From: Minisyncoccota bacterium
Lineage (GTDB): Bacteria > Patescibacteriota > Minisyncoccia > Phycocordibacterales > CAJBRS01
Length of the DNA: 64,000 bases
Direction: 5' to 3'
Assembly (NCBI GenBank): GCA_017881075.1
Contig: JADGRH010000003.1
Coordinates: 64,682 to 128,681, forward strand
Below are positions 6,313 through 63,021 of this stretch, piece after piece. The notes below the pieces were generated by a model. It did not search any database, was not told where the DNA came from, and saw only the letters and a program-made list of their open reading frames with translations. The position numbers and the translations under genes are program-made. Position 1 is the first letter of the stretch, and the number at the start of each line of letters is the position of its first letter.

Positions 6313-6346
6313 AAAAAATCCGGCCGAAGCATTTGTCGGCCGGATT
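6313..6346 (-). terminator. conserved hairpin terminator, copy 1 of 3
   Basis: aaaaaatccggcc-N12-ggccggatt. 9-bp stem, 12-nt loop, U-run on the minus strand; 15 nt after the receiver gene stop. Confidence 0.8.
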
Positions 6347-6361
6347 ATCAAAACCATTCGC

Positions 6362-6793: not shown

Positions 6794-7705
6794 ATGGATC
6801 AATCTCAAAACTCCACTAGAGAATATTCTGCCATTAGCCCAACATCTCGCAGCTCATTTTGGATGAAAACTTTCACCGACATTCCTTACGTGCGGGAAAT
6901 ATACGACGAGCTGGAAAAAGGGAAGCAGAGTGGAGCGGAAAGCAAAATCAGGGATTACGGAATCAATCATGTTGGTCTCTCAAGTATTGCTCCATATTTT
7001 GAGGCGAGATACTTAATCATTAATAGATTATTGAAAGAAGTTGGAGCGACACAGATTATTGAATTAGCTTCCGGCCTCACTCCTCGGGGTCTTGAGCTTA
7101 CCAAAGATCCAAATATCACTTTCATCGAATTAGACCTCCCTGATGTAATCGAAGAGAAAAAGAAAATAGTGGAAAATATTATAAGAGAGCATAAAATCGG
7201 CGATCGTAACAATTTGTATCTGGAAGCAGGAAGCGCCCTGGAAGAAGCGGATATCATGAAAGCCGCCTCTCATTTTGATGAAAAGAAAGAGATCGCTATT
7301 ATTAATGAAGGATTACTTCGCTATCTGAAAAGAGACGAACAGGCAAAAATGGCTCAGGCGATCTTACCCGTGCTTCAAAAATTCGGGGGAGTATGGATCA
7401 CCCCTGATATTGGCATCAGAGATAAAATGCTGGCAGGACAAGCGAAATTGTCGCCGATATTCATAGACAGAACTAAAAAGTTGGAAAAAATGACGGGCGC
7501 TGGAAATTTTTCCGACAACCTTTTCGCCGATGCTGCAGAAGCCAAGGCAATCTATGAAAAACTAGGATTTGAGATAGAGATGCATACTTACTCTGAAGTA
7601 TCCGATCAACTCGTTTCACCCACTAAACTCGGTCAACCAAAAGAGATTACAGACTCACTTATGGAATGGAGCAAGGTCTTTGTGATGCACCCAAAGACCA
7701 AATAA
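6794..7705 (+). CDS. class I SAM-dependent methyltransferase (LCMT/TcmP-like)
   Basis: Motif I-like IIELASGLTPRG and acidic post-I FIELDLPDV; length and layout match leucine-carboxyl/O-methyltransferase-like proteins. Confidence 0.65.
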   Translation: MDQSQNSTREYSAISPTSRSSFWMKTFTDIPYVREIYDELEKGKQSGAESKIRDYGINHVGLSSIAPYFEARYLIINRLLKEVGATQIIELASGLTPRGLELTKDPNITFIELDLPDVIEEKKKIVENIIREHKIGDRNNLYLEAGSALEEADIMKAASHFDEKKEIAIINEGLLRYLKRDEQAKMAQAILPVLQKFGGVWITPDIGIRDKMLAGQAKLSPIFIDRTKKLEKMTGAGNFSDNLFADAAEAKAIYEKLGFEIEMHTYSEVSDQLVSPTKLGQPKEITDSLMEWSKVFVMHPKTK

Positions 7706-7737
7706 AAAATCCGGCCAGAGAATTCACGGGCCGGATT
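7704..7737 (-). terminator. conserved hairpin terminator, copy 2 of 3
   Basis: aaaaaatccggcc-N12-ggccggatt. The stem overlaps the TAA stop of 7736..8089; also sits just after the convergent methyltransferase gene. Confidence 0.8.
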
Positions 7738-8089
7738 ACGAAAAACTTCTGAGTCCTAACAGCATGATGATGGTATTTACCAAATCGTCAGGATGAGCCT
7801 CATGGGTGCATCGAAAATAATTCAACATAATCTGTCGGATACCGGGACTTTTGTCCACAACCACAATGGGTCCATTGCAATGAGGAGGAAGACTCTTCAG
7901 AAGTGCTCCGGTGTTGAACGTTTTTGACCCAACACAAGTTTCGACGGCTACAAGGTCATAACGATCAGATTCCTCAATCGCGAATCTAACGTCGTAGGCG
8001 TAGCTTGCGCTGACGTCATATTCCTCCAACCTCCTTTGCCACTCGGTCGCCAGGTCATTGTCATTAGTCACAATTAAGATATTCTTCAT
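7736..8089 (-). CDS. receiver-like single-domain protein, degenerate (Glu at phospho-acceptor position)
   Basis: Paralog of 6362..6733 and 9503..9856. YDLVAVETCVG replaces DLVVVDG; conserved C-T-H motif near the C-terminus. Confidence 0.65.
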   Translation of the reverse strand: MKNILIVTNDNDLATEWQRRLEEYDVSASYAYDVRFAIEESDRYDLVAVETCVGSKTFNTGALLKSLPPHCNGPIVVVDKSPGIRQIMLNYFRCTHEAHPDDLVNTIIMLLGLRSFS

Positions 8090-8219
8090 TAGTCTTTCCT
8101 CATATTACACAGCCTTCCTTGGAAATCAAGGTAGAAATGGAAGTTATACCGAAAATAAAAAAGCGGCCACCCCTTTCGAAGTGCCGCTTGTTTGAACGCG
8201 ATGCGCGCTAAGATACCGC

Positions 8220-9350
8220 TTACTCTCTTAGCATCAGCGAGACCGTGTCGGGGAACGTTGTTGTGTAATCCCCGAAGATCTGCATGCCGAAACTTTTCGG
8301 CGTCACTTTGTCCCAAGTGATCTTCTCGTTGGCACCGGCGCCGGAATATGATCCGACACTCATTGGGGATGTGTGGTACTCGACGAAACCTCCCCATGGT
8401 CTGATGAGCTTGTCCTGTAGACGATGTGATTCGTCTGCGAGGAAGTCATGCTTGAGGTGGGGGACAACGCAAATGGCGAAGTCTCCAGCAATGCCGCCAC
8501 CAAGCTGGACGAAAGCCAGCGGAGTTTTGCGGGTCACGTCCATGTAGAATTCCGCGAGCGCATGCATGTACGAAATCCCCGGAAGGACCACGTTCATGTC
8601 GATCGGCGCCTCGATCTTGTAATTTTTCAAGAACCAATGGTCGCCCTTGTAGCACGCCTGAGCAAAAATATTGCCCATCGTAGAATCTTCGAATCCAGGA
8701 ACGAAGAGCGGAATGTCGAGTTTTGCAGCTTTGCGAAGCCAACATTCTTCCGCATTGGCCGTCGGATCTTTTCTGATCAGATCGTGCTTGAACAGGTGAT
8801 AGAAATACTGATGCCAGAGTTTCCGCTCCTTATTTACTCCGGCGATCCTCCATTGCTTCATGAGCTTGGGCAGGATGACTCTGACCGATTCGTCTTCCGG
8901 CAGGATCGTGTCTGTGATTCGGCGGAAACGAAGGCGGCGAAGCTCCTCTTCCTGTTTGGGCGTCAAGGATTGATAGTTGGGAATGTAGACATAATACTGA
9001 TTTGCTGAGAATCGGTAGGCGCTTTCTTCCATGTTCGCGCCGGTAACTGACATTCCGGCGATGTATCCGGCGTCCATCAGTCTGGTGATGGGTACACCGA
9101 GCTGGAATGATGATCCGGCTCCGGCCATTGATAAGAATATCTTGCCGCCCTCTTCGCAGAAATCTCGAAGCCAAAGGCCGGCATCGACAGTTCTTCCTCC
9201 GTTGCAATGGCGCTTGTTCTGGACCAGTGAATTTGAGACGGGGCTGTCTGCGCTGGGGGTATAACGTCGTTCTCCCACAGTGATCATCTTGCGAAGCCCA
9301 GGACTGAGCTGAGCCATTTTTTGTTTAAGGGACATGATTTGATTTGACAT
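8220..9350 (-). CDS. deoxyhypusine synthase-like family protein
   Basis: Layout and motifs parallel DHS: SMAGAGSS...VTGANMEE, QLGGGIAGDF (cf. ILGGGVVKHH), GSYSGAGANEKITWDKV (cf. GSDSGARPDEAVSWGKI). GC-rich: 31 G+C in 8221-8280. Confidence 0.65.
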   Translation of the reverse strand: MSNQIMSLKQKMAQLSPGLRKMITVGERRYTPSADSPVSNSLVQNKRHCNGGRTVDAGLWLRDFCEEGGKIFLSMAGAGSSFQLGVPITRLMDAGYIAGMSVTGANMEESAYRFSANQYYVYIPNYQSLTPKQEEELRRLRFRRITDTILPEDESVRVILPKLMKQWRIAGVNKERKLWHQYFYHLFKHDLIRKDPTANAEECWLRKAAKLDIPLFVPGFEDSTMGNIFAQACYKGDHWFLKNYKIEAPIDMNVVLPGISYMHALAEFYMDVTRKTPLAFVQLGGGIAGDFAICVVPHLKHDFLADESHRLQDKLIRPWGGFVEYHTSPMSVGSYSGAGANEKITWDKVTPKSFGMQIFGDYTTTFPDTVSLMLRE

Positions 9351-9470
9351 AGTGCTTTCCTCGGTTTGTGTTGTTCTTCTCTTCTGAAATCATATTACTT
9401 AAATAGGGGATTAGTTCAAGTTATGGGTTTTCCAAATTTTGAGCGGGTTTTTCACGAAATTGAAGAAAAT

Positions 9471-9504
9471 AAAAAATCCGGCCTGTGAATCGGTCGGCCG
9501 GATT
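9471..9504 (-). terminator. conserved hairpin terminator, copy 3 of 3
   Basis: aaaaaatccggcc-N12-ggccggatt; the stem overlaps the TAA stop of 9503..9856. Confidence 0.8.
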
Positions 9505-9856
9505 AAGAATAGCGCTTCAATTCAAGAAGAGTGACGATGAGAGACACCAACAAGTCCGGATGCGCGCCATGTGTGCATCCAAAATCTCTAATCATTGCCT
9601 GACGGATCTCCGAACTCTCGTCCACGATCACTATTGGTCCATTAGAATGGGCAGGGAGACTCTTGAGGAGTGGGCCCGTATTGAATGTCTTGGAGCCAAC
9701 GCAGGTCTCTACCGCCACGAGGTCATAACGGTCTTGATTGGAAACCGCATAACTTACGTCATAGGCGTAGCTTGCGTTGACTGCGTATTCATCCAGTCTA
9801 TTCCGCCAATCGGACAGATGGTCATTGTTAGTAGACACAATTAGGATAAACTTCAT
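9503..9856 (-). CDS. receiver-like single-domain protein, degenerate (Glu at phospho-acceptor position)
   Basis: Close paralog of 7736..8089 (shared YDLVAVETCVGSKTFNTG.LLKSLP, GCTH.AHPD). Confidence 0.65.
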   Translation of the reverse strand: MKFILIVSTNNDHLSDWRNRLDEYAVNASYAYDVSYAVSNQDRYDLVAVETCVGSKTFNTGPLLKSLPAHSNGPIVIVDESSEIRQAMIRDFGCTHGAHPDLLVSLIVTLLELKRYS

Positions 9857-9954
9857 ATTTCTATTTCCGATACTACATCAAATATCCCAAAAATCAATTT
9901 TTCCTGGACACCCCTTGAAATTGAAGAAAAAACAAAATCGGGTAGTATTACCTC

Positions 9955-10353
9955 ATGAACATACCAGCTTGGTATTCACAATTAATTAAACCTTCTTGGG
10001 CGCCACCATCGTGGCTCTTCGGGCCGGTATGGACATTTCTGTATGTCTTGATCGCCATTTCATTTGGCAAAGTATTTTTGATGGCATGGAAGAAAGAGAT
10101 TGCCCTCATGGTGGCCTTGCCGTTTTTACTCAATCTAATATTCAACTTCGCTTTCACACCCCTCCAATTTGTCCTCAAAAGCAACCTCCTCGCCGCCCTC
10201 GACATCCTTCTAGTTCTCGGCACTCTCATCTGGGCCATGCTGGCTATCTATCCCTATGCCAGATGGATCGCCTATATCCAAGTCCCATACCTCCTCTGGG
10301 TCCTCTTCGCCACCATTCTCCAATTAACGATTACGTATCTCAATCTAAATTAA
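9955..10353 (+). CDS. tspO: TspO/MBR family tryptophan-rich sensory protein
   Basis: WYSQLIKPSWAPPSWLFGPVWTFLY signature and multi-TM profile. Somewhat short at 132 aa. Confidence 0.85.
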   Translation: MNIPAWYSQLIKPSWAPPSWLFGPVWTFLYVLIAISFGKVFLMAWKKEIALMVALPFLLNLIFNFAFTPLQFVLKSNLLAALDILLVLGTLIWAMLAIYPYARWIAYIQVPYLLWVLFATILQLTITYLNLN

Positions 10354-10390
10354 ACCTGAACAAAAATTGAAGATTTAATGAATTTGTGGG

Positions 10391-10750
10391 ATGATTTTTA
10401 ATATGACTAAGATTGAGGATCTGATTACAAGAGTGACTGCATTTAGAGATGATAGAGACTGGAAACAGTTCCATAATCCCAAAGATAATGCTATCGGATT
10501 AGTTCTGGAAGCCTCGGAGGTTTTAGAGCTATTCCAGTGGAAAAATAAAGAAGAAATTGACAAGTATATAAAATCACATAGCGAAAATATTTCTGACGAA
10601 CTAGCGGATGTTATGTATTGGGTTTTATTAATGTCACATGACTTGAATATTGATATCGGAAAGGCTATAGAAAAGAAACTTAAGAAAACAGAAGAAAAAT
10701 ACCCTATAGAAAAATCCAAAGGTAATCATAAGAAGTACACAGAACTTTAA
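10391..10750 (+). CDS. MazG-like nucleotide pyrophosphohydrolase
   Basis: All-alpha MazG/dCTPase-like pattern: FRDDRDWKQFHNPKD, EASEVLELFQW (ExxE), ELADVMYWVL (ExxD), KKLKKTEEKYP. Confidence 0.8.
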   Translation: MIFNMTKIEDLITRVTAFRDDRDWKQFHNPKDNAIGLVLEASEVLELFQWKNKEEIDKYIKSHSENISDELADVMYWVLLMSHDLNIDIGKAIEKKLKKTEEKYPIEKSKGNHKKYTEL

Positions 10751-10754
10751 TCTT

Positions 10755-12608
10755 ATGATTCTATATAAAAATAATCTAAAGGATTTTAAAATTCACGTTG
10801 ATACTAATCAGATCGGGGATTTAATCGAGAAATCTTTTAGAGAAAAATTAGGGCACAAAGTTGCTCCAAATGAAAAAAGGTCATGGACTAATTCTATGTC
10901 GTTTATGGAGAAAATAGTCAGAAGGGCTGATCTTTCGGATACTTGCGGAGTTATGTTGGAATATATTATTCCAAACACTTCTAACAGAATCGACTTTTTA
11001 ATTTCCGGGGAAGACGAGAAAGGGAACAAGAATTTTATAATTATTGAATTGAAACAATGGGAAACATCAGAATCTACTGATAGAGATGGTGTAGTAAGGA
11101 CTTTTGTGGGAGGAGGAGTACGCGAAACTACGCACCCATCTTACCAGGCCCATTCCTATAAATTGTTTTTAAGTGACTACAATGAAAATATTGATTCTGG
11201 CATTCTTTCACCATACGCTTGCGCGTATCTGCATAATTATAAAGAGCGGAGTCCGGAGCCTCTAAAGGCTCAAATATATGAATCTGTTATTAAGGTAGCG
11301 CCAGTTTATTTTAAGGACGATTATGAAAAATTGGAGCAGTTTTTGCATAATTATGTTAGGTTCGGAAAAGGAGAAGAAATCTTGTATCAAATTGAAGCCG
11401 GCAGAATAAAACCTAGCAAAAAACTTATTGAGCATATTCAAAAAATGTATGAAGGAAACCAGGAATTTATATTACTGGATGAGCAAAAGGTGGCATATGA
11501 GACAGCTCGATCTGTAGCAAAGAAAGTTAAAGAAAAATCTGTCGTAATTATAAAAGGTGGTCCAGGGACGGGTAAATCTGTAATCTCAATGAATTTATTG
11601 GGAAGCCTATTAAAGGATGAACTTAATGTAAACTTTATTGCCCCTAACTCTGCCTTTAGAGAAGTAATGATTCATAGATTAGCAAGGAAGGAGACTAAAT
11701 TAAGGTTAAAAAACTTGTTTAAAGGCTCTGCTGGTTTTGTAAATGCCAAGAAAGACACATTTGATACTTTAATAGTGGATGAAGCACATAGATTAAAGAA
11801 AAAAGGTGCTTATCAATACAAGGGGATAAATCAGATAGAAGATATCGTTAATTCTGCTAGAACGTCTATCTTTTTTGTCGATGATAATCAGATGATTCGT
11901 CCAGACGATATAGGTTCAGTTCAGGAGATTAAAAGAGTGGCTGATAAAAATAAGGCAAGAATTTATGAAATAGAATTAGTCGCCCAATTTAGGTGTGCTG
12001 GGGCAGAAGGTTATCTTAATTGGCTCGACAATACATTACAGATTAAAGAGACAGCGAATTTTGATGGATGGGAGCAAAAAGATTTTGAGTTTAAGATTTT
12101 TAATGATCCTAACGACTTAAGGAAAATGATAAAAGAAAAGCATGATAAAGGATTTAATGCTCGAATTCTTGCTGGCTATGCTTGGAAGTGGACAAGTGTA
12201 GGGGAGGGCAATAAAAGTGGAGAAGTTGAAGATGTCTTAATCCCCGAATTCGATTTCAAAATGCCGTGGAATGCTCGACAAATTGGAACAACTTGGGCGG
12301 TTGATCCAAAAGGTATTGATCAGGCAGGATGCATTCATACTTCACAAGGTCTGGAATTTGACTACGTTGGAGTTTTGGTAGGCAATGATTTACGTTTTGA
12401 TTCCAAAAAACTTGACTACCATGCTCACTGGGTATCCTACAAAGATACGACGGGGAAAAAAGGGCTGAAAAATAACCCGGAAGAATTAACTAAATTAGTA
12501 AAAAATATCTACAAGGTTCTTATGAGCAGGGGTATGAAGGGATGCTATGTTTATTTTACTGACAAAGAAATGGAGAGATATTTTAAATCACGCTTAGGTA
12601 TCAAATAA
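10755..12608 (+). CDS. DUF2075-type ATPase/helicase-like protein with N-terminal PD-(D/E)xK-like nuclease motif
   Basis: Starts 4 nt after the MazG stop. N-terminus IDFLISG...FIIIELKQW (D...ExK). Walker A GGPGTGKSV, Walker B LIVDEAHRL. C-terminus HTSQGLEFDYVGVLVG and VLMSRGMKGCYVY as in DUF2075 proteins. Confidence 0.8.
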   Translation: MILYKNNLKDFKIHVDTNQIGDLIEKSFREKLGHKVAPNEKRSWTNSMSFMEKIVRRADLSDTCGVMLEYIIPNTSNRIDFLISGEDEKGNKNFIIIELKQWETSESTDRDGVVRTFVGGGVRETTHPSYQAHSYKLFLSDYNENIDSGILSPYACAYLHNYKERSPEPLKAQIYESVIKVAPVYFKDDYEKLEQFLHNYVRFGKGEEILYQIEAGRIKPSKKLIEHIQKMYEGNQEFILLDEQKVAYETARSVAKKVKEKSVVIIKGGPGTGKSVISMNLLGSLLKDELNVNFIAPNSAFREVMIHRLARKETKLRLKNLFKGSAGFVNAKKDTFDTLIVDEAHRLKKKGAYQYKGINQIEDIVNSARTSIFFVDDNQMIRPDDIGSVQEIKRVADKNKARIYEIELVAQFRCAGAEGYLNWLDNTLQIKETANFDGWEQKDFEFKIFNDPNDLRKMIKEKHDKGFNARILAGYAWKWTSVGEGNKSGEVEDVLIPEFDFKMPWNARQIGTTWAVDPKGIDQAGCIHTSQGLEFDYVGVLVGNDLRFDSKKLDYHAHWVSYKDTTGKKGLKNNPEELTKLVKNIYKVLMSRGMKGCYVYFTDKEMERYFKSRLGIK

Positions 12609-12658
12609 TTTATCTTTATTTTAGCGTTGCTTCATGATACACATGGTAGGTTGTCGTC

Positions 12659-12820
12659 ATGAAGAAACAAAAGATCAAAGATAGTGACAACGCCTATTTA
12701 ATAAGCAGTAACAACTATGAAGACGATAATTGCCCCATCTGCAATCTAATGAGGCGATGTGAAATAGAGGAAAGAGAACCCACCTCACAAGAGATTAAAG
12801 AGGTGATGAAATTTAAATGA
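12659..12820 (+). CDS. possible 53-aa small protein
   Basis: ATG..TGA ORF below the track cutoff (MKKQKIKDSDNAYLISSNNYEDDNCPICNLMRRCEIEE...). No SD and no homology recognised. Confidence 0.2.
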   Translation: MKKQKIKDSDNAYLISSNNYEDDNCPICNLMRRCEIEEREPTSQEIKEVMKFK

Positions 12821-12907
12821 TCCTATTTATGCACGGCCTTTATCTAAAAAATGGCCAATGGACCAAAGAGAGAGCAGTAAAAATATCTGCGTATCATTTC
12901 ACTTATG

Positions 12908-12935
12908 GATAATCCGGCCTGCTCTGCCACGCTTG
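12908..12935. repeat. left inverted repeat of candidate invertible segment
   Basis: gataatccggcctgctctgccAcgcttg; its reverse complement occurs at 13317-13344 with 1 mismatch (core 21 bp perfect). Confidence 0.85.
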
Positions 12936-13286
12936 TATTGCCCTCTACTTTTTTTATGGCATACTTAAAAAAGAAATCCATGACAGACCTAATCTGATCT
13001 TTAAATATAAACCCTATTTTGCAGGTATGAAGAGACAATAAAGCATCGATTAAAAAATAATATGACCAATAAATATAGCAATAATCTTGTTACATAGAAT
13101 TTCAAATTTACTTAAAATATGGCTCTAATCAAGAACTAATTAAGATATGCACAGCTTATCCACTGGTAAGCTATTTACAAAACTGCTAGATTATGATACA
13201 TTAAGAGAGGAATATTTCTTTTTCCCCTCTTGCTGATTATAATAAGCTTTTCTTTCATAATAGGAAAAATAATATTAGCTAAATAC

Positions 13287-13315
13287 TTGACTCCAAAAAT
13301 TTTGGAGAGTATTAT
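13287..13315 (+). promoter_or_regulatory. sigma70-type promoter facing the 13360 operon, inside the IR-bounded segment
   Basis: TTGACT (13287-13292), 17-nt spacer, TATTAT (13310-13315). The spacer contains the palindrome ccaaaaattttgg. The -10 ends 1 nt before the right IR. Confidence 0.55.
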
Positions 13316-13316
13316 G

Positions 13317-13344
13317 CAAGCGCGGCAGAGCAGGCCGGATTATC
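13317..13344. repeat. right inverted repeat of candidate invertible segment
   Basis: caagcgCggcagagcaggccggattatc, the reverse complement of 12908-12935. Confidence 0.85.
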
Positions 13345-13359
13345 AATAAATTAAATTAT

Positions 13360-13761
13360 ATGACCAACGACAAATCTTTTTTGGAGGATCTCTATACTGA
13401 CAGTGGGGGATTCGACCGCGAACGGGTAGTGCGGGTGCTCCAAACCATACTAACCATTCAGCGGGGCGACCATAAAGTCTTCTTTAAAAAAGAGGCAACA
13501 CTAGAAGCTGCGGACAAAATTTTGGCTTATGCGTTAGTAAAAAAGCTTTTAAAGACAGAGGGGGTAACTGAAACGAGTAGTGTCTCGGGAAAGGAACTGA
13601 AGAAGCAAACGGGTGTAAAGTCCGGGACGGTCGATTTTACAATTAAAAAACTTAAAGAGGAAGATGGTCTGCTTGTTGGCAGCGGTAGCAATTATGAAAT
13701 ACCAGCACACAAAGTTGAAGACATCTTAGAGCGTCTTGAAAAATGCGCTTCCAAAAAATAA
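13360..13761 (+). CDS. hypothetical protein, C-terminal winged-helix-like region (operon gene 1)
   Basis: 133-aa ORF. SGKELKKQTGVKSGTVDFTIKKLKEEDGLLVGSGSNYEI reads as helix-turn-helix plus wing (inference). Confidence 0.6.
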   Translation: MTNDKSFLEDLYTDSGGFDRERVVRVLQTILTIQRGDHKVFFKKEATLEAADKILAYALVKKLLKTEGVTETSSVSGKELKKQTGVKSGTVDFTIKKLKEEDGLLVGSGSNYEIPAHKVEDILERLEKCASKK

Positions 13762-13765
13762 ATCT

Positions 13766-14206
13766 ATGGAAAATAACATAAAAAAAATACTCGGAGAAAT
13801 ACTCACATCCATAAAGAGCCTTGAAAAACGAGTTACTCTCATAGAAAGCAAGACACCGAGCATGAGTACACCATCACATGATCTTCCCATTGCCTCGAAG
13901 AAGATGTCGATAAAGGAGTTCCTAATTGATCGCTCTCCAGCAAATGGAGTACAAACAACTCTCGCGGTCGCATATTATCTAGAAAAATATGACAAGATCT
14001 CGCCATTTAATGCCAGTGACATAGAGAAAGCATTTCGTTCCGCTAAGGAACCAGTGCCCAACAATATCAATGATAAAGCAAATATGTGTATTAAAAATGG
14101 TCATTTAATGGAAGGAGAGGATAAGAAAGACAATATGAAAGCGTGGGTAGTCACTCGAAGCGGAGAACAATACGTTCAGGAAAAATTTGATCGTTATAGT
14201 CATTAA
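13766..14206 (+). CDS. hypothetical protein (operon gene 2)
   Basis: ORF-track start 13736 overlaps gene 1. ATG at 13766 (MENNIKKILGE...) gives a 4-nt gap. N-terminal coiled coil; C-terminal ...CIKNGHLMEG...KAWVVTRSGEQYV is wHTH-like. Confidence 0.6.
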   Translation: MENNIKKILGEILTSIKSLEKRVTLIESKTPSMSTPSHDLPIASKKMSIKEFLIDRSPANGVQTTLAVAYYLEKYDKISPFNASDIEKAFRSAKEPVPNNINDKANMCIKNGHLMEGEDKKDNMKAWVVTRSGEQYVQEKFDRYSH

Positions 14207-14235
14207 AAATAAAATTATTCACTAATATAAATATT

Positions 14236-14784
14236 ATGTCTGAAGCAGAAATAGTAGAAATCGTAGGGAAAATTGTTACTGCACTCACTCCTCTTTCTCA
14301 TGAGGAACGACAGAGGGCGGTGCAAGCGTCTTTAAATGTATTTGGTGAATCCATGCTCAGGTCTACACAAAGAAAAGACGAACTCAATGAAATTCCCTCT
14401 GCATTTAGTGAACGCGCGCGGATATGGATTAAACAGAACGAGCTTTCTTTGGAAAATTTAGAACAAATTTTTCATATTACTGATACTGGAGCAGAATTGA
14501 TTATTCAAGAAGTGCCGGGAGGAAAGGATAACAAACCCAGGGTGCTAAATGTGTATGTTCTTTCTGGCGTAGCTTCCCTACTCACCTCAGAAAATTCTAA
14601 TTTCGACGACAAAGTTGCAAGAACCATATGTGAATCATTTGGATGTTACGATCCAACAAATCACACTAAATACCTAAAGAAAAGTAAATTCTTTACAGGA
14701 TCCAAAAAAACAGGATGGACCTTGACTGCTCAGGGTTTAAAACATGCAGCCATGTTAGTTAGAGAACTGAGTAAGCCCCAATAG
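14236..14784 (+). CDS. hypothetical protein (operon gene 3)
   Basis: 182-aa ORF. C-terminus ...KFFTGSKKTGWTLTAQGLKHAAMLVREL is wHTH-wing-like; no known family recognised. Confidence 0.6.
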   Translation: MSEAEIVEIVGKIVTALTPLSHEERQRAVQASLNVFGESMLRSTQRKDELNEIPSAFSERARIWIKQNELSLENLEQIFHITDTGAELIIQEVPGGKDNKPRVLNVYVLSGVASLLTSENSNFDDKVARTICESFGCYDPTNHTKYLKKSKFFTGSKKTGWTLTAQGLKHAAMLVRELSKPQ

Positions 14785-14786
14785 AT

Positions 14787-15527
14787 ATGATTTTCACATT
14801 TAAAAATATTCCGATCAATCTTTCTGAAAAATTGGTTGAGGAATACTTGGAAATAAAGAAACGCCATTCAATGAGTGATTGGGGCCCAAGTCAATTAAAA
14901 GGCGGTAGATTTGCAGAAGCTATGTTACGCATTTTCCAACATTTGCTCGGTATTTCTATTACACCATTTGGGACCAACATTCCAAACAAAGACCGTATTT
15001 TAAATGCTGTAAAAATTCACCCGTCATTGGATGACCACATTCGTCAAAAAGTAGCACCTCTTATAAGACTTCTTCTAGATTTTCGTAATAATCGAGATGT
15101 AGCACACCTCGGAGGATTCAATGCAAATAGCATGGATACTCTTTTTGTGATGACAACAGCGACATGGATTTTGTGTGAACTGATCCGTGTTTATGGAGGG
15201 CAAAGTATGGACACCGCTCAAAAACTAGTAGACTCACTTTCCGTTAAAGAGTATCCAGTGCTAATGGAGTTCGAAGGAGAGCTCTTTATTACTCGACACA
15301 ATCTCAACGCAGAACAAGAAGTGCTAATATTTTTGTATAAAAATCGTAAAGCAGGCTACAATTTTTTGTCTTCAAAGACAAAGGACAGCAATTCTTCACG
15401 TTTTAAGAAAATTTTAGAGAAAATGGTTGCGGTAAAGTTCATTGGCAGCAAGGCAAATCAGTACTTTATCATGCCTCGTGGAATCGAGCGTGTAGAAAAA
15501 GAACGCTTATTGATCTATTCAAACTAG
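14787..15527 (+). CDS. hypothetical protein with HEPN-like Rx6H motif and C-terminal wHTH-like region (operon gene 4)
   Basis: Starts 2 nt after the gene 3 stop. LLLDFRNNRDVAHLGG (R100..H107, nt 15084-15107) lies in an all-helical N-terminal half and resembles the HEPN RNxxxxAH motif. C-terminus KFIGSKANQYFIMPRGIERV. Confidence 0.6.
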   Translation: MIFTFKNIPINLSEKLVEEYLEIKKRHSMSDWGPSQLKGGRFAEAMLRIFQHLLGISITPFGTNIPNKDRILNAVKIHPSLDDHIRQKVAPLIRLLLDFRNNRDVAHLGGFNANSMDTLFVMTTATWILCELIRVYGGQSMDTAQKLVDSLSVKEYPVLMEFEGELFITRHNLNAEQEVLIFLYKNRKAGYNFLSSKTKDSNSSRFKKILEKMVAVKFIGSKANQYFIMPRGIERVEKERLLIYSN

Positions 15528-15612
15528 GAATCAACAAGGCCAAGGCTGTTTTTTATATCTATTTCATCTTTTCTTCATAAATTTTTCATATTTAAAATGT
15601 TATGATGTGTGA

Positions 15613-16083
15613 ATGCAAAAGGACTTTACCTTTCAATTAATAAAGGGAAAAATCAGCGAAACTATATTTGATCAGATGTTTCGAGAAGCAGGGGAGTTTA
15701 CAGTTATCCCCTTTGGTTATGAAGCTTTAGTCCCGGAAATTGCTCAGCTTGCTCGTTCATTAGAACGCAAGGAAGTTCTGGACTCAATTAGGAATAGTCC
15801 TGATTTTGCACTGGTCTCTCATAGTCAGAAAAAGGTATTTCTAGTTGAAGTGAAATATAGGTCGCATTTACACGAAGATGACGTGTTAAATATTGCTCAG
15901 ATGGTTCACGACAGATGGAAACTAGCGTGGTTGTTCATTGCTACTCCGGAAGGATTCTATTTTGATAGTTGCTCGGATGTCTTAAATACTAAGACCATTA
16001 ATAAACTTAAACCAACATGGATCAATGCCGAACTCCAGGAAAAGTATTTAGCAGTAATGAATAAGTTTCAAGTTAACCATTAA
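15613..16083 (+). CDS. PD-(D/E)xK restriction-endonuclease-fold protein (putative)
   Basis: SPDFALVSHSQKKVFLVEVKYRS matches D-x(n)-E-x-K core spacing. Extended -10 (tgttatgat) upstream. Confidence 0.55.
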   Translation: MQKDFTFQLIKGKISETIFDQMFREAGEFTVIPFGYEALVPEIAQLARSLERKEVLDSIRNSPDFALVSHSQKKVFLVEVKYRSHLHEDDVLNIAQMVHDRWKLAWLFIATPEGFYFDSCSDVLNTKTINKLKPTWINAELQEKYLAVMNKFQVNH

Positions 16084-16102
16084 GTAGAGGTAAGAATTTC
16101 TT

Positions 16103-16861
16103 ATGTTCTCAGATCCAATCATTGAAAATTTAAAGTATTACGTTTATATACTTGTTGATCCGAGCAATAATAAGCCTTTTTATATTGGAAAAGGAATAGG
16201 AAATAGGGTTTTTTCCCATCTAAAAAATGAAATTGAAGACGAGTCTAAGATTTCATTAAAACAAGCGCTTATTAAAAATATTCAGGATCAAGGGAAAGAT
16301 GTTGAGATATACATAGTACGACACGGTTTAAATGAGAAGGAGGCATTTGAGATTGAGGCGACACTTATTGATTTTATCCAACTTAGAAATCTTACTAATG
16401 AAATAGTAGAGCACGACTATAAGGAAGAAATACCAGCTAAAAATCTGGCTAATATTGTTTTAGGACATCATGCGGGAGAAAGGGGGCTTATGACGCTAAA
16501 TGAAATACTCCAGTTGTATGGTGCAGAAGAGGCTAATATTACCGACCCAGTAATAATAATTAATATAAATCGAAAATATAAACGGGGCATGAGTCCGAAT
16601 GAAATATATGAAGCAACTCGAGCATCTTGGGTCATAAGCAAAGATAGGTCACAGAAAGCTAAATTTGTTCTCGCATCATTTCGTGGAATAGTAAAAGAAG
16701 TTTTCTATGTTAATCATTGGCAACAATCTAAGAATTCAAACCGCTTAGAATTTGAAGGAGGTGTTGCTCAGTTAGAGATTGCTGAAAAATATAGAAACAA
16801 AGCTATAACTAATTATTTGAAGACGGGGGCACAAAACCCAATTAGATACGTAAATTGTTAG
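16103..16861 (+). CDS. GIY-YIG nuclease-domain protein with uncharacterised C-terminal domain
   Basis: N-terminus YYVYILVD...KPFYIGKGIGNRVFSHL...EIEATLI fits GIY..YIG..R..H..E. Confidence 0.7.
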   Translation: MFSDPIIENLKYYVYILVDPSNNKPFYIGKGIGNRVFSHLKNEIEDESKISLKQALIKNIQDQGKDVEIYIVRHGLNEKEAFEIEATLIDFIQLRNLTNEIVEHDYKEEIPAKNLANIVLGHHAGERGLMTLNEILQLYGAEEANITDPVIIININRKYKRGMSPNEIYEATRASWVISKDRSQKAKFVLASFRGIVKEVFYVNHWQQSKNSNRLEFEGGVAQLEIAEKYRNKAITNYLKTGAQNPIRYVNC

Positions 16862-16963
16862 ATTAAATTGTACTATTCTCATGCCAGATGAATTGGAAAA
16901 TCAGGAATTAAAGGGGTCAGAAGTCATTTTTATATTAAATTTTATCTTTCTGTTGTATTAATC

Positions 16964-17107
16964 ATGGACTCCGATGAAATCTTAGAATTAGTTAAAGATG
17001 GCGTGATAGAGCCGGATCAGGTGGAAGATTTTCAGAATTTGGATGAGGAGATCCAGCAAATGGTGGCGGATGGGGATTTGGATGCAGATGAGGCGTTGAG
17101 TTTATAA
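16964..17107 (+). CDS. possible 47-aa strongly acidic small protein
   Basis: ATG..TAA ORF below the track cutoff (MDSDEILELVKDGVIEPDQVEDFQNLDEEIQQMVADGDLDADEALSL). Ends 50 nt before the NYN gene. Confidence 0.3.
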   Translation: MDSDEILELVKDGVIEPDQVEDFQNLDEEIQQMVADGDLDADEALSL

Positions 17108-17157
17108 ATTTATCTTTTCTTGACGGGGAATTCATCTGCAAGTTCTATTCTATATGA

Positions 17158-17661
17158 GTGGAAAATGAGTTTAAGAATCTTGCTTTTATAGATGGACAGA
17201 ATCTGTATATGGGTACGTCAAAGCGAGAGATCGATCCGTGGGAAATTAACCTTACCCGATTCTGTGTATATCTGGATGAAAAATACAATGTCGGTAATGC
17301 CTATTATTTTTTAGGATATGTGCAGGAGGCAAATCAAGAACTCTACGAAGAAATACAAAAGGCTGGTTTCTTGCTAGTATTTCGAGAACATAATCCAGCG
17401 ATGATTGGGAAGAAAAAAGGAAATGTGGATTCAGATATTGTCTTTCATGTCATGAAAAATCTATACAAGAAAGAGAATTTTAAAAAGATAATCCTTGTTT
17501 CTGGAGATGGTGACTATAAATTACTGGTTGATTTTTTGATAGCAGAGAACCGATTCGAGAAGATATTGTTTCCGAATAGAGAATTTGCGTCTTCTTTGTA
17601 CAAGAAACTCGGTTCGGAATATTTTGATTACTTAGAAAATATAAAGACATATATCACATAA
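17158..17661 (+). CDS. NYN-domain (LabA/PIN-like) ribonuclease
   Basis: AFIDGQNLY, GNVDSDIVFHVM and ILVSGDGDY are the NYN acidic motifs. GTG start as in the ORF track. Confidence 0.8.
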   Translation: MENEFKNLAFIDGQNLYMGTSKREIDPWEINLTRFCVYLDEKYNVGNAYYFLGYVQEANQELYEEIQKAGFLLVFREHNPAMIGKKKGNVDSDIVFHVMKNLYKKENFKKIILVSGDGDYKLLVDFLIAENRFEKILFPNREFASSLYKKLGSEYFDYLENIKTYIT

Positions 17662-17823
17662 AAAGAAAAGGGCTCCTAAGGCACTTACACCTTTCGGATC
17701 CCTTTTCGTCTGAATATTTAAATAATATCGAAATCTGCGAATCTGTCAAACCAAAACTTCATAAATTCTTTATATGAAAGCACCTTTTATGTTAATATGG
17801 AATAAATAATCATCTTTAAACCT

Positions 17824-18138
17824 ATGCAAAATAAATACCCAATTTGGCACAGTTTGGGGCATGCGATATTGGTCTTTCTATATGTATCGGGAGTATCGTG
17901 GCTTATGTTCAATAGCCAAAATCTTTTCGGCCAAGTCAAAGATAGTTTTCTCGATCCGCTTGCCGTACTTCTTCTTTTTGTGCTCTCGGCCACTATTGTC
18001 GGCACACTCGTCCTCGGCCGGCCGATTCTCCTTTATTGGGATGGTAAGAAGAAAGAAGGTCTAGAGTTTTTTGGCCTGACCGTTCTATGGATGATCATTA
18101 TCACCACTATTGTCTTTATTTATCTTTTGGCTAGGTAG
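17824..18138 (+). CDS. small integral membrane protein
   Basis: 104 aa with 3 hydrophobic helices. Confidence 0.5.
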   Translation: MQNKYPIWHSLGHAILVFLYVSGVSWLMFNSQNLFGQVKDSFLDPLAVLLLFVLSATIVGTLVLGRPILLYWDGKKKEGLEFFGLTVLWMIIITTIVFIYLLAR

Positions 18139-18379
18139 AAATAAAAGGGTCAGGAGACATTTTTATGGATTGATTGATCCCAATAATCGAAAGGACCACA
18201 ATAAGGAGGACCAATATTCCTATACAGATGAACAGTTTCTTTTCTTCGAGCAAAATCCGTAAGATCTTCATAAAGATTTTATCACGGAATAAAAAGGGCC
18301 AGTTTTTTGACAATATAAGGATTCTGGATCCTAAGGGGATATAAAAAATAAAAAGCGCCTGATTGGGTAATGAATCCAA
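18131..18379 (-). CDS. possible small membrane protein
   Basis: Abuts the stop of 18380..18877. One clear TM (ICIGILVLLIVVLSIIG); the true start may be the internal MKILRILL. Confidence 0.3.
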   Translation of the reverse strand: MDSLPNQALFIFYIPLGSRILILSKNWPFLFRDKIFMKILRILLEEKKLFICIGILVLLIVVLSIIGINQSIKMSPDPFIST

Positions 18380-18877
18380 TCAAGCAACTTTGAATGTACG
18401 AGTCAGGAGCTCACAAGCAGCTGGCTTGCCGAAGTCAACGATTCGGATTGTTCCGTCGGAGTATCGACAATACTGCCTAGCTTCCTGCAGATCGGCGAGA
18501 GATGTGTCCACCCCTCCAATATTGTCCCATCCGTTCGGAAAACGCTCACGCACTTCCTCCAGAGTAACGGCTGTTCCTCGATCTTGGGTGGCGATCAGGC
18601 CGCCCCACATCAGACGGCGCATTGGCATCAGCCTGTCATCATGGGTTCTGAGGTACTGGCTATATTCCAACCGATTCCCCAGAATTCCATCCATGAAGCT
18701 GTGTTTAATGGAGGAACGGTAGCTGCCGAAACGTTGGATGTGTCGCCGACGTCTGTCTGCCGAAACTGCTAACCCGAGCAGCCTCTCAATGAGCCGAAGA
18801 GGGCGGAAAAAACCGATTCTTATAGCGCGATCTTCCAAAAGAATGACCACGCGGGTAGAGCCTTTCAGGATTTTCAT
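18380..18877 (-). CDS. hypothetical protein (GC-rich)
   Basis: 165-aa ORF. The opposite-strand ORFs are Arg/Ser-rich shadows. 'IRIVDFG' is reminiscent of a kinase DFG, but no other kinase motifs were seen. Confidence 0.5.
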   Translation of the reverse strand: MKILKGSTRVVILLEDRAIRIGFFRPLRLIERLLGLAVSADRRRRHIQRFGSYRSSIKHSFMDGILGNRLEYSQYLRTHDDRLMPMRRLMWGGLIATQDRGTAVTLEEVRERFPNGWDNIGGVDTSLADLQEARQYCRYSDGTIRIVDFGKPAACELLTRTFKVA

Positions 18878-18988
18878 CTGTAAAAATACTACAACTCTTA
18901 TTAGAAACAGTCAAATATGGGAAAAGGTGTAATGGTGTATGATGAAGGATCGTCACCTAAGGTAATTATTCTTTAATCATTTATTTAT

Positions 18989-19438
18989 ATGAACAAAGAC
19001 ATTAACGCCAAGGATCTAAAAAAAGAATCACCCCGAAGCGCTTACGAGACCATGGGAGGCTACGCCATTTTACCAAGAGCGATCGATAAAGGCCGTGCCA
19101 CCATTGCAGGAACGCAGTGGGAATATAATTTTGACTGCCCGGTGGATAATAAATTTTTAAGTTTTAGCGGTCTGAAAGGGGAAGATATGAAAGCGGTGCT
19201 CGCGAGCGGAGCGAGCGACGAAGAAGTGCTTGAATGGGTGAAGAAGAGTGCCACATCGCACACAGATGAAGAGATCAAAGAATGGTCCGATCATTTTCAC
19301 AGCGACTACTCCTATACCACCGATCCGGATAAAAGCGGCTGGTTTAGGGGAGAATGCGCTAAGTATGGTCTTGATCCCGACAAAACCACTCTGTTTGATT
19401 TTCTTGATGTAGATGACCGTGAGTCTCATAAGAGCTAA
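18989..19438 (+). CDS. DUF5069-like protein
   Basis: SPRSAYETMGGYAILPRAIDKGRA pattern recalled from DUF5069; assignment from memory only. Confidence 0.45.
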   Translation: MNKDINAKDLKKESPRSAYETMGGYAILPRAIDKGRATIAGTQWEYNFDCPVDNKFLSFSGLKGEDMKAVLASGASDEEVLEWVKKSATSHTDEEIKEWSDHFHSDYSYTTDPDKSGWFRGECAKYGLDPDKTTLFDFLDVDDRESHKS

Positions 19439-19474
19439 AGTTATATAATAAACGGCAAGATGAATAAATTAAAT

Positions 19475-19523
19475 GGACAGGTGCATTATTCATACATTAT
19501 TTAAAATACACCTGTCCCTTTTT
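19475..19523 (+). terminator. intrinsic terminator
   Basis: ggacaggtg / cacctgtcc stem followed by cttttt. Confidence 0.7.
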
Positions 19524-19527
19524 ACCC

Positions 19528-19791
19528 ATGAAAATCATCGTCAAGGCAAAACCAAAGGCGAAGGAGGAGAAAGTAGAGAGGGTGACCCCTCACCAAATTT
19601 CTTTGAATTTGAAATTTGGTGAGGGGGCTGAAATGGATGTCTATAAAGTTTCGGTCAAAGAGCCGCCGGTAGATGGACGGGCAAATGAGGCCATAACGAA
19701 AGCTTTGGCCAAGCATTTCGGCGTTTCTTTGTCTCAAGTCCGTCTGGTGTCTGGGGCGAGAGGAAAGAAGAAGATTTTTGAAATTAAGTAA
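19528..19791 (+). CDS. DUF167 (YggU-like) protein
   Basis: VKAKPKAK...V.V..PPVDGRANEAI...LAKHFGVSLSQVRLVSGARGKKK matches the DUF167 signature. Confidence 0.8.
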   Translation: MKIIVKAKPKAKEEKVERVTPHQISLNLKFGEGAEMDVYKVSVKEPPVDGRANEAITKALAKHFGVSLSQVRLVSGARGKKKIFEIK

Positions 19792-62807: not shown

Positions 62808-62999
62808 GCCAAAAGACTCTTGCGAAACCCACGCAGGAGCTTAGAAAATTAAGAGGCAAAAAGCTTCAGAACGGAGGAGACTGTTTGAGCGAAGCGAGTT
62901 TGACGGAGTAGGAGCTTTTTGACTCTATAATTTTCTTGAGCGACGAGTTAAGCAAAAACTCACCAGAGTTTTATGCGGGTTCCGCAAGAGTCTTTTGGC
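62808..62999. other. ~192-nt nested imperfect palindrome (candidate structured RNA or MITE-like element)
   Basis: Outer arms 62808-62830 / 62977-62999 (23 bp, 1 mismatch). Inner arms ~62837-62867 / 62912-62941 (about 24 of 29). 44-nt centre; asymmetric 6/35-nt internal loop. Confidence 0.6.
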
Positions 63000-63021
63000 A
63001 GAGCTATGTTATAATCCCGCC

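Follow-up and report, generated by a model that had tools for sequence, protein, structure and literature searches.

The segment at positions 12908–13344 of the window (the whole 64-kb stretch of DNA that was analysed) had been described by a sequence-only reading as a candidate invertible promoter switch. Our analysis points to a control region native to a winged-helix/HEPN cassette of four genes that is horizontally mobile, and in this region a rare, recombinase-independent and homology-driven promoter flip may take place, a reading to which we assign a probability of roughly 0.4. In the arrangement we propose, an AT-rich promoter/operator module (332–381 bp) would be bracketed by the operon's own leader on the right and by an inverted copy of that leader on the left.

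The geometry of the repeat is as first described. The left copy, GATAATCCGGCCTGCTCTGCCACGCTTG at 12908–12935, matches the reverse complement of 13317–13344 at 27 of 28 positions, with one mismatch and a perfect core of 21 bp, and this is the longest spaced inverted repeat in the 64-kb window (the runner-up measures 23 nt). Pairing of the arms runs outward to 12892 and 13360, with 39 of 44 positions matched (12892–12935 with 13317–13360), and is poor in the ATG-proximal 16 nt (12/16); inward extension of the complementarity is also weak (76% over 68 nt). Comparison of the flanks at both boundaries bears out the claimed absence of a target-site duplication: no direct repeat is present in the core flanks (...CTTATG followed by GATAATCC, and GGATTATC followed by AATAAA) or in those of the 44-nt arms (GCG followed by TATCATTT, and AAATTATA followed by TGACC). 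The enclosed 381 bp is indeed AT-rich, at 27.6% GC compared with 42.6% for the whole window. The features of the control region are as follows.

12852..12865, minus strand: weak terminator-like hairpin and T-run just outside the left arm; 2 such hairpins found versus 1.0 expected, which is the chance level
12892..12935, no strand assigned: left arm, inverted leader copy; core 12908–12935 strong, outer 16 nt degenerate; an equivalent arm is present at homologous loci
12936..13316, plus strand: AT-rich interior, cassette promoter/operator module; homologous and co-oriented in 7 aligned loci, with fixed distances from motifs to the ATG
13055..13063, plus strand: footprint AAATAATAT, about −305 from the ATG; 7 of its 9 bases are invariant columns, and it is found exactly at −280 to −305 in 6/9 loci
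13191..13197, plus strand: footprint TTATGAT, about −169 from the ATG; TTATG is invariant and lies at −155 to −169 in 6/9 loci
13256..13264, plus strand: footprint CATAATAGG (CATAAT-type), roughly −104 relative to the ATG; four loci have it between −101 and −104, within a partly conserved block
13287..13315, plus strand: promoter TTGACT (−35), 17-nt spacer, TATTAT (−10), adjoining the right arm; 10/12 match
13317..13360, plus strand: right arm, predicted operon 5′ leader, spanning approximately from the TSS (predicted near 13322, 38 nt ahead of the ATG) to the first base of the start codon, from the arm alignment

The promoter proposed earlier is the best sigma-70-like match in 12500–13800, an interval that holds seven such matches in total, little above the number in shuffled sequence (4.7). 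Its −35 element is better characterized by comparison: CTTGAC is invariant in 7/7 aligned upstream regions and lies 71–76 nt 5′ of the ATG in 9/9 loci, and this conservation speaks for a real −35. The footprint AAATAATAT is repeated at 13267–13275. The palindrome noted in the promoter spacer, ccaaaaattttgg, is present, but it is not conserved in the homologues. A small ORF or sRNA inside the interior was considered and rejected, as neither is conserved in the homologues, and Rfam gave no meaningful match at the gathering threshold over the window or at E ≤ 1 over 12600–13500. A conserved terminator to the left of the left arm was likewise rejected, since the hairpin in the window is the single weak case and none occurs at the other loci.

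The repeat appears to be confined to this locus. No further copy was found in the 64-kb window with up to 3 mismatches allowed, and 100 shuffles likewise lead one to expect none. The search for other loci with the same repeat yielded nothing beyond chance: the exact 19-nt core has 13 matches in the GTDB species genomes (596 Gb) and JGI metagenome contigs, all of them single arms in unrelated coding sequence. The stem motif TAATCCGGCC is, as had been noticed, common to the repeat and to the stems of three nearby terminator hairpins at 6316–6347, 7707–7738 and 9474–9505. A 14-nt identity, GGCCGGATTATCAA, also joins 6338–6351 to 13333–13346.

Downstream of the right arm lie the four genes that were claimed to form an operon from 13360, and conserved synteny in homologous cassettes supports that claim.

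13360..13761, plus strand: gene 1, 133-aa winged-helix protein, likely a regulator; AF2 pLDDT of 82, weak matches to winged-helix transcription factors and a weak HTH_11 match
13766..14206, plus strand: gene 2, 146 aa; a homologue has a weak HTH_59 match, and the gene has the same position in all cassettes
14236..14784, plus strand: gene 3, 182 aa, third gene of the conserved operon
14787..15527, plus strand: gene 4, 246 aa; HEPN-like helical domain at the N terminus, winged helix at the C terminus

The gene-1 family has at least 84 members, and homologues of genes 1 and 4 number more than 250. Gene 4 looks like a HEPN plus winged-helix protein, with invariant R100, N101, R103, D104 and H107 in the HEPN-like domain, and its product is probably an RNase effector. 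The cassette is found in defence-island contexts, and searches of the four genes with PADLOC, NCBIfam and Pfam identified no known defence system. It is a horizontally mobile unit that occurs in hosts from candidate-phyla bacteria to Bradyrhizobium; the phage and plasmid sequences of IMG/VR, PLSDB and INPHARED contain no match to it.

We compared the window with the corresponding regions of homologous cassettes, giving a set of 9 loci with the window counted, of which 7 carry the inverted repeat and 7 were aligned. The repeat-bracketed layout is present in 7/9 of these independent cassettes, with arms of 38–137 nt and an interior of 332–381 bp in fixed order.

Window: arms 39/44, interior 381 bp
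L015: arms 36/38, interior 381 bp
L017: arms 60/61, interior 368 bp
L018: arms 53/60, interior 332 bp
L031: arms 58/59, interior 345 bp
L037: arms 96/108, interior 345 bp
L045 (Bradyrhizobium lablabi, GCA_018129385.1, contig JAFCLN010000005.1, 87.7–94.1 kb): arms 137 nt at 83%, interior 332 bp

The hosts that bear the repeat include a CPR bacterium with 42% GC and, at the other extreme, GC-rich Alphaproteobacteria whose gene-1 proteins share only ∼61–80% identity. In the homologues the right arm begins between −37 and −50 relative to the ATG and always reaches the start codon, its outer ends falling at 0, −1, +10, +11, +23, +62 and +86; a mirror ATG is kept at 5 loci. From these alignments, the arms are the predicted leader of the operon itself (from about the TSS to the ATG) and an inverted copy of that leader. 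The comparison shows that the repeat is a conserved architecture, selected or actively homogenised, and not a chance repeat. The left arm is nonetheless dispensable, because two loci that lack it (L029 and L046) keep the same orientation and promoter. Open reading frames that run leftward out of the left arm are only 12–80 aa long and unconserved beyond the arm, and we found no alternative functional gene on that side.

The arms are 83–98% alike within a lineage and different between lineages. They group by locus and not by side: the two arms of L037 match at 96/108 positions, compared with 81/107 for the left arms of L037 and L045. Sites that changed in concert number 6–15 per lineage pair, versus 0–1 side-specific sites, and 1–2 sites are swapped between the arms of related lineages. 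This clustering by locus, with concerted sites far exceeding side-specific ones, demonstrates DNA-level exchange between the arms. Codon 5 of gene 1 (AAC/AGC) illustrates this exchange, with A in the right arm and G in the left arm of L017 and L045 and the reverse in L037, a swap of the kind that reciprocal exchange would give. Arm mismatches comprise 13 G·U, 17 A·C and 21 transversions; they show no G·U bias, so that the arms resemble DNA copies more than a selected RNA helix, although long stems would tolerate such mismatches. The alignments thus show that the arms are kept alike within every lineage by DNA exchange, which may be gene conversion, template switching or crossing-over.

One further gene-1 sequence (P0086) carries the codon-5 allele of the other arm, which is suggestive of arm exchange. 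Two truncated gene-1 sequences were considered as traces of such exchange and rejected, P0085 because in Bradyrhizobium sp. LTSP857 the entire promoter region was lost through a deletion between microhomologies and P0089 because it reflects an unrelated 5′ rearrangement.

How might such exchange act on the promoter? The −35 (CTTGAC) always lies in the unique interior adjoining the right arm. In the window the module also carries the −10, whereas in the alphaproteobacterial loci the −10 (CATAAT/C) lies within the arms. A flip would therefore create a promoter at the left end of the module and abolish the one at its right end. Exchange between the arms would flip the module whenever its outcome is a crossover or a template switch that inverts the spacer; promoter and operators would then aim left into non-coding or junk sequence, where the weak minus-strand hairpin at 12852..12865 would halt transcripts leaving the flipped module, and the operon would be left without a promoter. 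ON would be the selected majority state, and flipping is probably infrequent. Because no dedicated invertase would be needed, the capacity to flip could travel with the cassette between phyla. A stronger form of this proposal, in which host recombination or replication template switching flips the defence-like HEPN/winged-helix cassette ON and OFF in any host as a self-contained, invertase-free phase switch, with the same exchange keeping the arms matched, is possible but on balance doubtful.

A close parallel comes from Campylobacter fetus, where Dworkin and Blaser reportedly showed in 1996–97 that inversion of the sap promoter is RecA-dependent and that the inverted repeats are the conserved 5′ ends of the flanking genes. 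As in the cassette, a single promoter lies between inverted copies of the 5′ end of a flanking gene (leader and first codons), and sap inversion is RecA-dependent with no dedicated invertase. The sap locus differs in having full-length alternative genes on both sides, repeats of hundreds of bp and a segment of kilobases; the cassette has only junk ORFs on its left side, arms of 38–137 nt and a segment of 332–381 bp, and its flip is one that we infer. RecA-dependent phase variation also has a precedent in PMC9946442. Efficient RecA/RecBC recombination requires a minimal segment (MEPS) of 23–27 bp (PMC12074656), and because the perfect core in the window, at 21 bp, is at or below this minimum, the switch in the window may be very slow or effectively locked ON. 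Template switching between the arms of an inverted repeat homogenises the arms and inverts the spacer (PMC8604942), and template-switch or quasipalindrome homogenisation (PMC8604942, PMC7202029 and PMC5941160) would account for both the likeness within lineages and the divergence between them. The process is, however, mainly known for short repeats with short spacers, and it is a mutational process rather than a regulatory device.

Several observations weigh against a promoter flip. Concerted evolution of the arms is possible by conversion or template switching without inversion, and a right arm that always reaches the start codon is a prediction of RNA masking and not a requirement of inversion. 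In addition, the window is in the ON orientation that had been claimed for it, with the promoter between the repeats facing the operon, and no flipped copy was found among 27 assembled contigs from the 7 repeat-bearing lineages, all of which are ON. In three lineages the interior is identical over 10, 5 and 4 full-length contigs from different samples, again all ON. For the window itself, the Logan assembly of SRR10489828 matches positions 7360–19761 without a difference. One MEGAHIT contig (L034) stops 1 nt inside the inner boundary of the right arm, which is a weak hint only.

RNA-level insulation, which we regard as unlikely but credible, would explain the architecture without any DNA inversion. 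Leader-masking inverted repeats of the IS10/IS50 type protect an element from outside transcription. Because the element's promoter is placed after the upstream repeat, both arms occur together only in read-through RNA, and the translation start is covered by the downstream arm. The left arm of the cassette could act similarly as an anti-leader, such that in read-through transcripts the arms would pair across ∼350 nt into a duplex of 28–137 bp that would hide the leader together with the start codon and serve as a substrate for RNase III, while transcripts from the cassette's own promoter would escape. Consistent with this possibility, every locus has its predicted promoter between the arms, the right arm extends from about the predicted TSS (−37 to −50) to at least the ATG, and orientation is constant across lineages. 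The arms pair in the predicted fold of read-through RNA from the window (−127.8 kcal/mol, z = −8.0), genes upstream of the operon in the window point the same way as it does, and L029, which lacks the left arm, comes immediately after a tRNA gene and a hairpin that resembles a terminator. A 5′UTR inverted repeat in IS200 sequesters the SD and is combined with a terminator against impinging transcription (PMC4513863). However, G·U pairs are not in excess over A·C (13 versus 17, with 21 transversions) as an RNA-type substitution bias would predict, and DNA conversion is needed in any case to explain near-perfect identity that includes lineage-specific synonymous sites. Transcripts that start within the AT-rich interior would escape masking, L017 and L045 have the repeat even though their upstream gene is divergent, and the ATG-proximal 16 nt of the arms pair poorly in the window. 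The IS arms are also tens of nt apart, whereas those of the cassette are separated by 332–381 nt and are up to 137 nt long, and the cassette has no transposase.

It is distinctly unlikely, in our estimate, that the repeat is a functionless relic, in which an ancestral inverted duplication of the leader and the 5′ end of gene 1 is re-homogenised by conversion or template switching and eventually lost, the interior being merely the promoter region of the cassette. Several features are compatible with a relic: the left arm is missing in 2/9 cassettes that retain the promoter module, the outer arm boundary is variable with identity falling off at the edges, the ORFs leaving the left arm are junk, and the arms in the window are short and partly degenerate. 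Bradyrhizobium sp. LTSP857 has deleted the region between CGGTGTA microhomologies, which shows the repeat to be a liability. Against a relic, the same inner boundary and a similar spacer (332–381 bp) are retained in 7 lineages from CPR to Alphaproteobacteria, and because inverted repeats are normally unstable such long retention suggests selection.

A classical inverton, with the 28-bp repeats recognised and the 381-bp segment inverted at high frequency by a tyrosine or serine invertase from another part of the genome, is improbable. Site-specific invertons have short repeats (9–30 bp) that are often reused, a dedicated tyrosine or serine recombinase, and both orientations in sequence data. 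The geometry of the window fits this class, with a promoter enclosed between repeats in the ON orientation and a repeat core of 21–28 bp that is typical of known invertons, and the inspection covered 64 kb of the genome. The analogy drawn with E. coli fimS and Bacteroides capsule promoters, to which the RecV switches of C. difficile can be added, therefore holds for an IR-bounded promoter that lies beside an operon and is ON when it faces the genes. It is not supported for the dedicated recombinase, the reused repeats and the second orientation, none of which was found, the orientation having been compared among assembled contigs. As the sequence-only reading had stated, the window lacks a recombinase gene: no recombinase Pfam domain was found in the 46 ORFs scanned, and apart from a few overlapping frames these include the full set of 53 ORFs of at least 150 aa. 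Nor is a recombinase conserved beside the cassette in the 9 loci, and a cassette-encoded one was rejected, given that no examined cassette protein is recombinase-like (gene 1 is a winged helix and gene 4 HEPN-like plus winged helix). In L031 a large serine integrase lies 2.5 kb from the cassette, as part of its island. The repeat is not reused in the window, the 596 Gb of genomes or the JGI metagenomes, a flipped copy was found in none of the lineages, and the arms of homologous cassettes, up to 137 nt long, are unrelated in sequence with no shared core found among them, so that each host would need its own matching invertase. Without a recombinase in the window or a conserved arm core, a site-specific route is unlikely, which leaves exchange driven by homology as the DNA route; if the segment inverts, such exchange is the more likely means.

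The MITE-like insertion raised as an alternative, a TIR-bounded element that supplies a promoter by chance, has in its favour the terminal inverted repeats, the AT-rich interior without coding sequence and the length of ∼440 bp but can be dismissed as highly improbable, because it is single-copy in the window with only unrelated chance matches to its 19-nt core in genome and metagenome collections, lacks a TSD, has arms that are the operon's own leader, and has an interior whose orthologues keep their synteny with gene 1 across nine unrelated hosts.

The cassette itself is an uncharacterised system, absent from PADLOC, in which a HEPN/winged-helix protein is accompanied by three small proteins, two or more of which have weak winged-helix/HTH matches. 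Invertons are normally viewed as pairs of a site and a recombinase and hence as bound to their host. If the homology-driven flip is real, a promoter switch arising from a duplicated leader alone would be portable together with the genes it controls, and transferred, potentially toxic defence cassettes would bring their own bet-hedging switch with them. Even without inversion, concerted evolution has maintained a leader-derived inverted repeat on both sides of a promoter/operator module of rigid spacing, in hosts of different phyla, which makes the repeat of this cassette a clean and testable case of conserved non-coding architecture.

The inverted repeat proposed from the sequence alone is confirmed, far beyond chance. 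GATAATCCGGCCTGCTCTGCCACGCTTG at 12908-12935 is found again, reverse-complemented and with one mismatch, at 13317-13344; the two copies form the longest spaced inverted repeat of the 64-kb window, which has no further copy of the sequence when up to three mismatches are allowed (0 expected by chance). Pairing of the arms extends outward as far as 12892 and 13360 (39/44 matched), with a perfect core of only 21 bp and poor pairing of the 16 nt adjacent to the gene-1 ATG, and inward there is weak complementarity (68 nt at 76%). The interior has a G+C content of 27.6%, compared with 42.6% for the window. The other factual elements of the sequence-only reading were also borne out: the near-consensus promoter is the top sigma-70-type match of the region (10/12), the operon from 13360 consists of four co-directional genes, and a recombinase domain was found in none of 46 ORFs in a Pfam scan that covered essentially all window ORFs of at least 150 aa.

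Features of the cassette locus
12892-12935, left arm
Between the arms, interior, 381 bp
13287-13315, predicted promoter (TTGACT-17-TATTAT), stopping one base short of the right arm
13317-13360, right arm, its last base the A of the gene-1 ATG
13360-13761, +, gene 1, 133 aa
13766-14206, +, gene 2, co-directional with gene 1
14236-14784, +, gene 3, co-directional with gene 1
14787-15527, +, gene 4, co-directional with gene 1

Genomic context was compared for nine independent lineages of homologous cassettes (L numbers denote their contigs or loci), and seven of these have an AT-rich segment between long inverted repeats that reach or enter the start of gene 1.

Inverted repeats and interiors by lineage
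Window: arms 39/44, interior 381 bp
L015: arms 36/38, interior 381 bp
L017: arms 60/61, interior 368 bp
L018-27: arms 53/60, interior 332 bp
L031-35: arms 58/59, interior 345 bp
L037-41: arms 96/108, interior 345 bp
L045 (Bradyrhizobium lablabi isolate): arms 137 nt at 83%, interior 332 bp

L029 and L046 keep the promoter region without a left arm. At an eighth locus beside the seven, L016 (Logan SRR22356424, k=31), the contig breaks 33 nt upstream of the ATG, inside a leader that shows homology with the window's right arm. The interiors are mutually alignable, are constant in orientation relative to the operon and carry conserved footprints whose spacing to the ATG hardly varies.

Conserved footprints, positions relative to the gene-1 ATG
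-280 to -305, AAATAATAT
-155 to -169, TTATGAT
About -103, CATAAT(A/C)(T/G)(G/T)
-71 to -76, CTTGAC, 9/9 loci

A 17-nt spacer places the predicted -10 at roughly -50 to -45 and the predicted TSS at ∼-38. The inner ends of the right arms range from -37 to -50, and the outer boundaries fall at 0, -1, +10, +11, +23, +62 and +86, never short of the ATG. Judged from the predicted TSS and the right-arm starts, the arms would essentially be the transcribed leader with the start codon, extended by as much as 86 nt into the coding sequence, and an inverted copy of this stretch. For the alphaproteobacterial loci, the -10 (CATAAT/CATAAC) is part of the arms, which leaves the -35 as the one promoter element unique to the interior. 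Within the window's interior, AAATAATATGACCAA (13055-13069) matches AAATTATATGACCAA at the gene-1 start (13353-13367) at 14/15 positions; its first half is the footprint AAATAATAT, and because the ATGACCAA part is not kept at other loci the likeness is probably coincidental.

Between lineages the arms are unalignable or strongly diverged, whereas within one locus they are 83-98% identical. Sites were counted pairwise among the five alignable lineages, as concerted where left and right arm match within each locus but not from one locus to the other, and as side-specific where left resembles left and right resembles right. Each lineage pair has 6-15 concerted sites versus 0-1 side-specific sites. 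Within the coding part, synonymous changes that are specific to one lineage are common to both arms, a pattern that requires the arms to be copied from each other at the DNA level. These changes also exclude base-by-base selection on a binding site or a long RNA helix. The lineages all have orthologous interiors and an orthologous inner boundary, so the leader duplication is ancestral and not recurrent. There are also one or two 'swapped' sites per lineage pair. At gene-1 codon 5 (position +13), L017 and L045 have AAC in the right arm and AGC in the left, and L037 has the reverse (GAACTC versus GAGCTC; Asn/Ser); P0086, a gene-1 homologue that clusters with the L037 protein at 90%, has the other allele. 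Small as these numbers are, reciprocal exchange would account for swapped sites more simply than paired point mutations, and the codon-5 difference may be a trace of such exchange or a maintained mismatch.

The reading that we favor, with a probability of roughly 0.4, is that the promoter module, built from a duplicated leader, would flip by homology between the arms without an invertase, rarely, and is possibly locked ON (promoter facing the cassette) in the window's genome. The geometry is exactly as a promoter flip needs, and the demonstrated DNA exchange between the arms is a further point for inversion. In Campylobacter fetus sap, inverted 5' gene ends surround one promoter, and the cassette similarly has its promoter between inverted copies of a gene 5' end. 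Template switching between inverted-repeat arms is known to homogenize the arms as well as to invert spacers (PMC8604942), and RecA-dependent phase variation exists (PMC9946442). Against inversion, an OFF-oriented interior was seen in none of the seven repeat-bearing lineages, all of which are ON, and interiors are identical across three sets of full-length contigs (10, 5 and 4) that come from different samples. Further points count against it: two lineages (L029 and L046) do without a left arm, arms of different lineages have no core sequence in common, no recombinase is present in the window, and the window's perfect core falls short of the minimal length quoted for efficient RecA/RecBC recombination, 23-27 bp (PMC12074656). 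The MEGAHIT contig L034 (ERZ27294382 k141_376364) starts one base inside the right arm's inner boundary, approximately where assembly of a mixed-orientation population would be expected to break, a weak indication from one low-coverage contig end; a repeat that collapsed in the assembly graph, or orientations mixed there, could explain why L034 and L016 end at or inside the right arm.

It is less likely that the arms serve to pair in read-through transcripts and hide the leader. A transcript entering from upstream would include both arms, the promoter is situated between them, and the arms pair with each other in the predicted fold of the read-through RNA (-127.8 kcal/mol, z = -8.0); in every lineage the right arm covers the interval from predicted TSS to ATG, its outer boundary never stopping before the ATG. 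IS10 and IS50 mask their leaders against impinging transcription. IS200 has such a device as well (PMC4513863), and the positions of the cassette's promoter and right arm fit a device of this kind. However, arm mismatches show no G.U preference (13 G.U, 17 A.C, 21 transversions), the arms are separated by 332-381 nt, the repeat is kept despite a divergent upstream gene in L017 and L045, and the window's 16 ATG-adjacent nucleotides pair poorly. Inversion and masking are compatible, not exclusive, and either would depend on conversion to preserve the repeat. Less likely again is a functionless repeat maintained by that conversion. The invertible promoter as first proposed stands in its structure, but not as a recombinase-served inverton of the fimS or Bacteroides type, there being no recombinase in the window and no common core; a classical inverton served by a distally encoded invertase is improbable. 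The MITE-like insertion offered as an alternative in the sequence-only reading, together with a suggestion to look for the repeat elsewhere, was not borne out and is rejected as very improbable, since a scan for the 19-nt repeat core across one genome per GTDB species and JGI metagenome contigs gave 13 matches, each single-arm and within unrelated coding sequence, and there is no target-site duplication at the window's repeat.

The inverted repeat is a liability as well. In Bradyrhizobium sp. LTSP857 (L042, JYMS01000007.1, 3887-3961; also L043), two CGGTGTA microhomologies, situated within the left arm and immediately after the right arm, are the endpoints of a deletion that has removed the inner part of the left arm, the interior and the whole right arm together with the next 9 nt. 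Gene 1 has lost its first 71 nt, and the result is promoterless, 5'-truncated and annotated as 94 aa; L044 has an unrelated 5' truncation of gene 1. The 68 nt upstream of a PIN toxin-antitoxin pair (L037 1312-1379) match the guaA 3'-end region downstream of the cassette in L042 (6051-6118), which suggests that this pair and the cassette form, at the 3' end of guaA, an island of ∼3.8 kb with direct repeats as its borders; no integrase lies within it.

The window is chromosomal (RNase P RNA, tRNAs, ftsZ/ftsA, leuS, lepA, purL and RNR genes). Its LepA is closest, among named organisms, to proteins of Candidatus Paceibacterota/Parcubacteria (72-77% identity), which places the source among the CPR/Patescibacteria, and 7360-19761 is reproduced exactly by the Logan assembly of SRR10489828. 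The 10.7-17.7 kb region (10755-17661) looks like a defence island.

Members of the putative island and hairpins upstream of it
Schlafen-type/DUF2075 helicase (PADLOC PDC-S41/AbiO/Nhi-like)
53-aa ORF
Four-gene cassette
TnsA-like protein, 156 aa
GIY-YIG PD-T4-3 homologue (1e-53)
NYN-domain protein
6316-6347, 7707-7738 and 9474-9505, hairpins of the form AAAAAATCCGGCC-loop-GGCCGGATTA, A-run on the + strand

Given the A-run, the three hairpins are predicted minus-strand terminators, and two of the three lie directly behind minus-strand genes of 117 aa. An exact 14-mer, GGCCGGATTATCAA, is common to the first hairpin (6338-6351) and the right arm (13333-13346), with 0 expected in shuffles. Because a related leader is present in L016, the window's arm sequence is taken to be inherited within the cassette lineage. 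Elsewhere in the window, a nested imperfect palindrome of ∼190 nt (62808-62999; outer 23-nt inverted repeat 62808-62830/62977-62999) folds into a single long hairpin (-98.9 kcal/mol, z = -9.0) immediately upstream of a Lactamase_B_3 gene (62995-63627), overlapping its start.

The cassette genes had no match in PADLOC or NCBIfam, and the cassette had none in phage and plasmid collections; there are at least 84 homologues of gene 1 and at least 257 of gene 4. The predicted gene-1 structure is a winged-helix protein (pLDDT 82), its structural matches being winged-helix transcription factors without exception, all weak. Genes 2 and 3 give weak HTH-like hints and nothing more, and gene-4 homologues belong to Pfam PF27235 (AF_1680). 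The cassette may encode a HEPN RNase effector under the control of winged-helix partners, which, if true, would explain the benefit of tight or heterogeneous expression.
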